The notes under the pieces are model-generated. The model was not told the DNA's origin and made no database searches. It was given only the letters and a program-made list of their open reading frames with translations. Made by a program: the position numbers and the translations under genes. From Escherichia coli (GTDB lineage Bacteria; Pseudomonadota; Gammaproteobacteria; Enterobacterales; Enterobacteriaceae), in NCBI RefSeq assembly GCF_016903815.1, contig NZ_CP069973.1: DNA of 64,000 bases; one strand, written 5' to 3'. Position 1 is the stretch's first letter; each line of letters begins with the position of its first letter. Of the stretch, positions 39,622 through 40,887 are shown in pieces.

Positions 39622-40068
39622 TTATTTGCCTTCGTGCGCGTGCTCATCTTCGCGGCAATCGCCTTCGGCACAGTGACCGTAAAGATAGAGACTGTGGTTA
39701 GTCAGGCGAATGCCATGTTTTGCGGCAATTTCACGCTGACGCGCTTCGATGGAATCATCACTAAATTCGATTACCTTGCCGCAGTCGAGGCAGATCAGGT
39801 GATCGTGGTGATGTTGCTGTGTCAGTTCAAATACGGATTTACCGCCTTCAAAATTGTGGCGGGTGACGATACCAGCGTCGTCAAACTGGTTCAGTACGCG
39901 ATATACCGTAGCCAGACCAATTTCTTCACCCATATCGATCAGACGTTTGTATAAATCTTCCGCACTGACGTGATGGTTGTCCGGCTCCTGAAGAACTTCC
40001 AGGATTTTTAAACGAGGAAGCGTTACTTTCAGGCCAGCTTTCTTTAGGGCGGTATTGTTATCAGTCAT
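39622..40068 (-). CDS. fur: Ferric uptake regulator Fur (148 aa)
   Basis: MTDNNTALKKAGLKVTLPRLKILEVL N-terminus; HHDH and CxxC metal sites. Confidence 0.93.
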   Translation of the reverse strand: MTDNNTALKKAGLKVTLPRLKILEVLQEPDNHHVSAEDLYKRLIDMGEEIGLATVYRVLNQFDDAGIVTRHNFEGGKSVFELTQQHHHDHLICLDCGKVIEFSDDSIEARQREIAAKHGIRLTNHSLYLYGHCAEGDCREDEHAHEGK

Positions 40069-40147
40069 GCGGAATCTGTCCTGTTACTAAGCGGTTCACT
40101 TCATTAGGAGAAGTGACAGAATTTGCTCTTGAGATAATGCGTATCAT
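40061..40147 (-). CDS. uof: uof, upstream ORF of fur (28 aa; MIRIISRANSVTSPNEVNRLVTGQIPHD), translationally coupled to fur
   Basis: The 28-codon ORF overlaps the fur start by 8 nt; established leader-peptide arrangement. Confidence 0.7.
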   Translation of the reverse strand: MIRIISRANSVTSPNEVNRLVTGQIPHD

Positions 40148-40356
40148 TATAGAATTGCCACGCCTAAATGAAAACCACAAGTCCCTGGCAAATATTGTTA
40201 ATAAAAACGTGGCACAGCTTACATTTACAACGGCAAGGCCACTTGAACACCGGGACATTGTACAGGTACAACAGCAAAAGTTACAAATTTGTAGCAATTA
40301 TTTTGATTGGCATTATCTATTAATACGGCGTAGACATGAGTCTACGCCGCATCACA
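40148..40356 (-). promoter_or_regulatory. fur promoter region (Fur autoregulation; OxyR and CRP inputs expected)
   Basis: Established knowledge; individual sites not mapped by eye. Confidence 0.4.
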
Positions 40357-40887
40357 TCAGGCATTGAGAATTTCGTCGAGATGCAACTCTTCAGAAATCT
40401 GTTTAACCCATTTTTCTACACGTTCAGCGGTCAGTTCCGGCTGACGGTCTTCGTCGATAGCCAGACCGACAAAGTGGTCGTCATCTGCCAGACCTTTTGA
40501 TGCTTCGAAATGATAGCCCGCAGTTGGCCAGTGACCAACAATGGTTGCACCGCGCGGTTCAATGATGTCGCGGATGGTGCCCAATGCGTCACAGAAGTAT
40601 TCAGCGTAATCTTCCTGGTCACCACAACCAAACAGCGCAACCAGTTTGCCATTGAAATCAATCTCTTCGAGAGTCGGAAAGAAGTCATCCCAGTCACACT
40701 GCGCTTCGCCGTAATACCAGGTTGGGATGCCCAGCAGCAGAATGTCATATGCTTCCAGATCTTCTTTGCTGCTTTTTGCAATGTCATGGACATCGGCAAC
40801 GTCTTTACCAAGCTGTTTTTGAATCATTTTTGCGATATTTTCGGTATTACCGGTGTCGCTGCCGAAAAAGATGCCAGTGATAGCCAT
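40357..40887 (-). CDS. fldA: Flavodoxin 1 FldA (176 aa from [16 protein letters not shown])
   Basis: Flavodoxin FMN-binding signature (GSDTGNTE); the track ORF extends 39 codons upstream. Confidence 0.92.

Follow-up and report, generated by a model that had tools for sequence, protein, structure and literature searches.

Does the short reading frame that runs into the start of fur in this stretch of Escherichia coli DNA represent the leader ORF uof, and does it keep the arrangement that would couple its translation to that of fur? The window, by which we mean the whole 64,000-nt stretch that was analysed (part of contig NZ_CP069973.1), carries fldA (40357-40887), uof (40061-40147) and fur (39622-40068) one after another on its minus strand, an order that is the same in K-12. 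The flanking genes are readily recognized, with fldA matching NF006735 over its full length (403 bits) and the 148-aa fur of the ORF list matching the NCBIfam equivalog NF006999 at 309 bits. Between them, translation of the minus strand from the ATG at 40147-40145 gives 28 sense codons and a TGA at 40063-40061. The encoded peptide, MIRIISRANSVTSPNEVNRLVTGQIPHD, agrees exactly with the one given in a preliminary description of this DNA, which had also stated that uof ends 8 nt inside fur and that the coupling is intact. The shared nucleotides, 40061-40068, can be read directly from the sequence, and the translation contains neither a frameshift nor an internal stop, the lesions that the description had named as fatal to its claim. 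At the level of sequence the word intact is justified: the ATG, the 28 open codons, the TGA, the UCA at codon 6 and the fur Shine-Dalgarno are all present.

The identity of this frame can be judged from a curated model and from annotation. NF011344, the NCBIfam curated equivalog for the 'fur leader peptide' (PRK14761), admits a sequence that scores above its cutoff over the full length; Uof reaches 81.3 bits against a cutoff of 71 (E = 3.1e-23), with residues 1-28 lying on profile positions 1-28. DNA identical to the window carries the RefSeq annotation 'uof: fur leader peptide' (WP_001695552.1), as in the genome of strain 7/2, which equals the window over the uof stretch. More broadly, the 381 nt around uof were matched in 5424 of 5426 complete E. 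coli genomes, with RefSeq uof annotation under the matches. Because of the NF011344 score and the RefSeq annotation on identical DNA, we do not regard uof as a chance ORF. The element is very likely the E. coli uof leader ORF, an orthologue of K-12 b4637 (YP_001491546.1, 'RyhB-regulated fur leader peptide'), present here in a common minority allele, Ser14Pro. The K-12 gene occupies the same fldA-uof-fur-chiQ locus and shares the 28-codon length, the ATGACTGA overlap and the UCA at codon 6, differing in having Ser14 (TCT) where the window protein WP_001695552.1 has Pro14 (CCT). The matches number 5427 in total, one of them on a plasmid, and two complete E. coli genomes gave no match at all. In strain TW14425 (H30), the match begins only at query position 80 and is joined by a second place, a pattern that points to an insertion or rearrangement in the fldA-uof interval.

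In a mechanical list of ORFs, uof is easily overlooked. It appears there only as the tail of a 78-aa frame (40061-40297, minus strand) that starts at a TTG, and the preliminary description was right to call this longer frame spurious, since its N-terminal extension of 50 codons is not conserved. The TTG at 40297 lies just upstream of the -35 element of the outer promoter and is preceded by no Shine-Dalgarno in the sequence. Upstream of the uof ATG, the frame stays open for 9 to 45 codons in the species whose uof is of the E. coli type, and in E. albertii a stop stands 9 codons upstream. We rejected the 78-aa ORF as a real gene on the grounds that it lacks a Shine-Dalgarno, overlaps the promoter region and meets stops in sister species.

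The alignment to K-12 uof that had been proposed as a check returned one difference, the Ser14Pro replacement. The aligned stretch reaches from 'TAATAG', some 100 nt before the Puof promoter, as far as the fur start, and within it a single base, 40108, separates the window from K-12 MG1655. It makes uof codon 14 (40106-40108, minus strand) CCT (Pro) in the window where K-12 has TCT (Ser), and K-12 Uof, MIRIISRANSVTSSNEVNRLVTGQIPHD, differs from the window peptide at residue 14 alone. The start and stop codons of uof, its UCA at codon 6 and its rare codons ATA and AGA are all unaltered, and so are the AGGA Shine-Dalgarno of fur, both promoter-like sites and the predicted RyhB-pairing stretch. 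Beyond this stretch, fur has four differences in its coding sequence, and a fifth follows immediately after its stop codon; despite the four, the Fur protein is that of K-12, since the same WP_000131702.1 is annotated on genomes with the Pro14 allele.

Codon 14 is also where uof varies within the species. Exact searches with 87-nt alleles in 5424 complete E. coli genomes assigned 4810 to the K-12 allele, 393 (7%) to the window allele and 221 to others, and those of the others that were sampled alter codon 14, to CGT (Arg) in BEC1-S17-ESBL-09 and to TTT (Phe) in SCPM-O-B-8794. Residue 14 is thus Ser, Pro, Arg or Phe in this species; the residues seen there in other genera are Val, Leu, Ile, Ala, Ser, Phe and Arg. 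Pro14 is probably the derived state, since E. albertii has Ser. In folds of the long leader both alleles give the same predicted structure with the same minimum free energy, -51.2 kcal/mol, and the variant base is unpaired in a hairpin loop with a probability of 0.97-0.99. As codon 14 is also found as Arg or Phe and belongs to a hairpin loop, the conserved part of that hairpin across Enterobacteriaceae being its stem, the replacement is probably neutral. We also considered whether the T-to-C change (UUCU to UCCU) creates a better anti-Shine-Dalgarno for the fur AGGA, and rejected the idea: the base is in the loop in every fold and the minimum free energy is unchanged.

What, then, of the junction itself? 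The overlap, 8 nt of ATGACTGA at 40061-40068 on the minus strand, holds the fur ATG at 40068-40066 and the uof TGA at 40063-40061, and read from the sequence the UGA starts 5 nt after the A of the fur AUG, the closeness of stop to start that is looked for in a translationally coupled pair. The stop depends on fur codon 2 being ACT. In 50 sampled Enterobacteriaceae-type fur genes (those with the N-terminus MTDNNTALKK) ending in GA(C/T), the Thr2 codon is ACT except for two with ACA and one with ACC. The fur Shine-Dalgarno AGGA (40079-40082, minus strand) lies 10 nt before the fur ATG, within uof codons 22-23, in a ribosome-binding block, AACAGGACAGATTCCGCATGAC, that is almost invariant in an alignment of 38 Enterobacteriaceae. 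In predicted folds the fur AUG is unpaired with a probability of 0.76-0.94 and the Shine-Dalgarno with one of 0.36-0.65, which is to say half-paired, and none of the leader folds predicts a strong structure sequestering the fur start. From the sequence of the junction, uof-fur translational coupling would appear to be intact in this strain.

The transcripts that reach this junction are of more than one kind. A promoter scan returned two promoter-like sites on this strand, an upstream one (40257-40286; -35 TTGTAA, -10 TACAAT; 9/12), the Puof of the literature, and an inner one (40146-40174; -35 TTTTCA at 40174-40169, -10 TATAAT at 40151-40146; 10/12). The upstream site gives transcripts with the whole of uof. 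The inner -10 shares its last two bases with the beginning of the uof ATG, and because of this overlap the transcripts that it yields are without the uof start codon and stand outside the coupling. A Fur-box-like 19-mer, TATAATGATACGCATTATC, covers 40151-40133 on the minus strand and matches 16 of the 19 positions of the generally known Fur-box consensus, GATAATGATAATCATTATC. The uof ATG is thereby embedded both in the inner -10 and in the Fur-box-like palindrome (40133-40151). No obvious Shine-Dalgarno precedes uof in the sequence, and on long transcripts the palindrome is predicted to fold as an RNA hairpin that pairs the uof AUG, whose predicted unpaired probability is about 0.08-0.10 in the long-transcript fold. 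The published maps place the fur a and b start sites inside uof and a Fur box over the -10 (PMC7867234), and describe a ybfE-fldA-uof-fur operon with three promoters, in which K-12 RNA-seq sets uof-fur apart as a transcription unit still present in stationary phase (PMC4161252). Northern blots resolve two mRNAs, a long one that covers uof and fur and a short one for fur, and Sinha et al. found that the short one falls in response to RyhB and the long one does not (PMC6191717). In the spacer between fldA and uof, 9 nt after the fldA stop, we note a perfect 9-bp inverted repeat, GGCGTAGAC-TCAT-GTCTACGCC (40327-40348, minus strand). It is followed by no T-run and was not reported by the terminator scan; it may act as a stabiliser between the two genes or as a partial terminator.

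From these parts and from the K-12 literature, a course of events can be proposed. Transcripts from the ybfE, fldA and uof promoters would carry the whole of uof, and ribosomes would start at its AUG (40147), read 28 codons including the UCA at codon 6, pass a small hairpin and then the fur Shine-Dalgarno, and stop at the UGA (40063-40061), 5 nt past the fur AUG, where their arrival would promote initiation at fur by translational coupling. Low iron would free ryhB from repression by Fur, and RyhB would pair around the uof start, block uof translation and so lower Fur synthesis indirectly. A second brake has been reported in which MiaB, an Fe-S enzyme, becomes inactive and the UCA codon would be poorly decoded. 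Coupling, RyhB repression and MiaB dependence are all taken from work on K-12, and we infer that they operate unchanged in this strain. A similar logic is known from thrL and ivbL, targets of the sRNA GcvB, where an sRNA likewise blocks initiation at a short upstream ORF and thereby lowers the downstream gene (PMC7534054). These two act by transcription attenuation, whereas uof acts through its stop/start overlap, that is, by translational coupling, and no terminator follows it.

The preliminary description had further cited uof as the site through which RyhB is reported to repress Fur synthesis indirectly, and reviews and later experimental papers bear this out (PMC7534054; PMC12683245; PMC6191717). 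Efficient translation of fur is reported to be linked to the 28-codon uof, and RyhB to block initiation at uof, which leads to less Fur (PMC7534054; PMC12683245); inversion of G44 and C45 of RyhB abolishes the repression of uof/fur (PMC6191717). The UCA at codon 6, here at 40132-40130 on the minus strand, is reported to need MiaB-methylthiolated tRNA-Ser to be read efficiently, which ties the translation of uof and fur to iron (PMC7466049; PMC11448259). The gene for RyhB is absent from the 64-kb window, and in K-12 it lies about 2.9 Mb away. The primary paper on uof, by Vecerek, Moll and Blasi in 2007 (EMBO J 26:965), is said to contain both the mapping of the RyhB site and the coupling experiments.

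Where RyhB would pair in the window can be suggested from duplex prediction with the K-12 RNA. For RyhB nt 30-80, the best predicted duplex uses RyhB nt 37-77 in three helices (-24.4 kcal/mol) and spans the uof start at 40165-40114 on the minus strand, a stretch identical to K-12. In the predicted helix 1, RyhB nt 38-47 face GAGCAA...UGUC (40128-40115), with GAGCAA (40128-40123) opposite nt 42-47 and thus opposite G44 and C45. Helix 2 would join RyhB nt 60-65 to UGAUAC (40146-40141), beginning at the second base of the uof AUG, and helix 3 would join the 5' arm of the RyhB terminator stem to GGCGUGGC (40164-40157). This use of the terminator arm fits the remark that the published RyhB-uof model overlaps the RyhB terminator stem (PMC3018821). 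The variant base 40108 falls outside the predicted duplex. With the seed region alone (RyhB nt 31-62), the duplex reached -14.5 kcal/mol, weaker than the mean for shuffled leaders, and 271 of 300 shuffled leaders were at least as stable; because the seed-only duplex is no better than shuffles, energy by itself gives no ground for calling the pairing significant. When full-length RyhB was folded with the entire leader, only long, meaningless duplexes resulted, and others too have found the RyhB-uof interaction hard to predict (PMC3018821). The RyhB-pairing site at 40165-40114 is accordingly put forward as a prediction only.

How widely the overlap is kept can be viewed from outside E. coli. We scanned one genome per species with a degenerate pattern for fur codons 11-25, which does not condition on the overlap, and in each of the 120 loci returned from Enterobacterales and Vibrionaceae followed the ORF from the conserved TATAATG. 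About 57 Enterobacterales species keep TATAATG, and in 31 of them the ORF from that ATG overlaps the fur start, ending at +6 of fur in 25 and at +2 in 6. The 25 have the E. coli-type 8-nt overlap and an ORF of 28-29 codons, and they come from Escherichia, Citrobacter, Enterobacter, Leclercia, Kluyvera, Pluralibacter, Phytobacter, Pseudocitrobacter, Pseudescherichia, Siccibacter and Superficieibacter. The other six (Cedecea, Mangrovibacter and relatives) have a shorter leader read in another frame that ends on ATGA, with a 4-nt overlap. Since the stop falls on ATGA even after the change of frame, the overlap as such may well be under selection. These ATGA leaders (L068, L106, L011, L099, L020 and L113) belong to Cedecea, Mangrovibacter and some strains labelled Enterobacter or Pluralibacter; their peptide is unrelated after residue 5, with the stop/start overlap retained and the TATAATG start the same.

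Elsewhere the frame is curtailed. In Salmonella enterica subsp. diarizonae and arizonae, a 1-nt deletion in the hairpin loop shifts the frame of uof, and their ORF ends after 16 codons, 30 nt before fur, which costs these leaders the E. coli-type overlap; the truncated frame, MIRIILSAISVTSLMK, is found in L095 (3390-3494, minus strand) and L120 (11529-11633, plus strand), and the returned loci did not include Salmonella enterica subsp. enterica. In Yersinia, Serratia, Mixta and Winslowiella only 4 codons follow from TATAATG, in agreement with the report that Y. enterocolitica is without uof (PMC7867234). Compared with the window, the other Enterobacterales fur leaders have in common the TATAATG/Fur-box start, the hairpin and the fur ribosome-binding block, and differ by the truncation in S. 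arizonae and diarizonae, the ATGA overlap in Cedecea and Mangrovibacter and the 4 codons in Yersinia, Serratia and Mixta. One genome, Enterobacter asburiae INSAq146 (L061, 1563-1668, minus strand), has ACA as fur codon 2 and has lost the uof TGA, and its ORF runs to 49 codons and ends 69 nt inside fur. In several Photobacterium and Vibrio species (L118, L032, L111, L097, L012, L098, L057 and L112), an ORF runs from a TATAATG that lies 53-95 nt ahead of fur to a stop 23-38 nt within the gene; this Vibrionaceae leader ORF may be a counterpart of uof, either independent or very divergent. Across genera, to call uof intact is thus a meaningful statement, and within E. coli it is the rule.

Conservation within these leaders is uneven. 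In the 38-species alignment the conserved blocks are TATAATGA(G/T)ACGCATT at the start, which takes in the promoter and Fur box, and the stretch from AATCGTTTAGCAACAGGACAGATTCCGCATGAC onward, which takes in the fur ribosome-binding site. The middle of uof is variable in sequence and always forms a hairpin. In the window this is a 7-bp stem, UCACUUC / GAAGUGA, with the loop UCCUAAU (40096-40116, minus strand). The hairpin ends 27 nt short of the fur ATG and has a predicted energy of -8.5 kcal/mol (z about -3 against shuffles). Among the 38 Enterobacteriaceae, 21 distinct stems occupy the same place, for example CGCUCA/UGAGCG, UGCUUCG/CGGAGCG, CUCCC/GGGGG and GCCC/GGGC, and their loops are 3-9 nt long and unrelated in sequence. 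RNAalifold on a MAFFT alignment missed the hairpin because its 5' arm is out of register between subgroups. We therefore counted base pairs in 74 leaders realigned to a covariance model; standard pairs filled 81.5% of cells, against 68.5% in shuffles (none of 500 as high) and at most 62% when the partner was slid by 1-3 columns, figures that lean in the hairpin's favour since the alignment is fitted to the structure and the sequences are related, and that come from columns gapped in about one third of rows. The covariation score on the same alignment was 0.141, compared with 0.061 for shuffles and at most 0.069 for partners slid by 1-3 columns, and changes on both sides, that is, compensatory ones, occur in all seven hairpin pairs.

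Codon 14 of uof forms loop positions 2-4 of this hairpin, and it varies freely because of that location. No U-run follows the stem, and no earlier description of a mid-uof hairpin was found in the later uof/fur papers cited here. It is possible, if short of probable, that the amino-acid sequence of Uof is unconstrained and that its conservation stems from three overlapping nucleic-acid elements, with the hairpin among them as a potentially functional cis element. Were this so, the hairpin could set how far fur translation depends on ribosomes arriving from uof, or could instead serve Hfq binding or mRNA stability, and a loop free to vary would explain the Ser/Pro/Arg/Phe polymorphism at codon 14.

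These observations also bear on how much the coupling would matter. A rather doubtful reading is that the coupling is real and contributes little: most fur mRNA would come from the inner, Fur-repressed promoter, the bulk of Fur would be made on messages that have no uof start codon, and uof would be conserved mainly for the DNA and RNA signals it overlaps, namely the promoter with its Fur box, the hairpin and the fur ribosome-binding site. The inner -10 TATAAT (40151-40146) does overlap the uof ATG, the fur a/b starts do fall inside uof, and a separate short fur mRNA responds to RyhB (PMC7867234; PMC6191717). Conservation within Uof falls on the Fur box, the arms of the hairpin and the fur ribosome-binding site, with the loop codons varying freely, and leader DNA is conserved even where uof is truncated (S. 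arizonae and diarizonae) or absent (Yersinia and Serratia). However, a minor role sits poorly with a distinct K-12 uof-fur transcription unit that lasts into stationary phase (PMC4161252), with K-12 experiments in which fur translation is reported to depend on uof (PMC12683245; PMC11448259; PMC7534054), and with the 31 of about 57 TATAATG species that keep an ORF ending over the fur start (25 at +6, 6 at +2).

Two further readings carry much less weight. We think it very improbable that Ser14Pro alters regulation, through the loss of one U-starting serine codon or the gain of a slow proline codon, in such a way that the coupling differs quantitatively in this lineage. The change is non-synonymous, leaves uof with three UCN serine codons in place of four and is confined, as the Pro14 allele, to 7% of genomes, but codon 14 is the most variable position both within E. 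coli and in other genera, it sits in a hairpin loop that varies in sequence and length, folding predicts no difference in structure or energy between the alleles, and the codon reported to be critical is the unchanged UCA at position 6. To the notion that uof is a chance ORF without a role, its overlap an accident of the fur codons ACT GAT, we give almost no credence. The TGA does exist only through the use of ACT for fur Thr2, as the loss of the stop in the one Enterobacter asburiae genome with ACA illustrates, and the peptide is without known function. Against this, the frame passes the curated equivalog model NF011344; 28-29 codons are kept open in 25 species despite a divergent middle; ACT encodes Thr2 in the 50 sampled fur genes ending in GA(C/T), apart from two with ACA and one with ACC; translation from the uof start has already been reported for K-12; and K-12 genetics support a role (PMC6191717; PMC7534054).

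Overall, the uof of this window is a known element, annotated before and found here in its usual state, and what is new is confined to details: the minority Pro14 allele, the side observations on leader evolution and the internal hairpin. The observations on the leader and its hairpin may be of interest to those who work on fur regulation. Short leader ORFs such as uof sit hidden within longer mechanical ORFs, and curated models are needed to call them. For the organism, the elements of the Fur-RyhB post-transcriptional feedback appear from their sequence to be kept in their standard form, and we would expect nothing unusual in the iron regulation of this strain.
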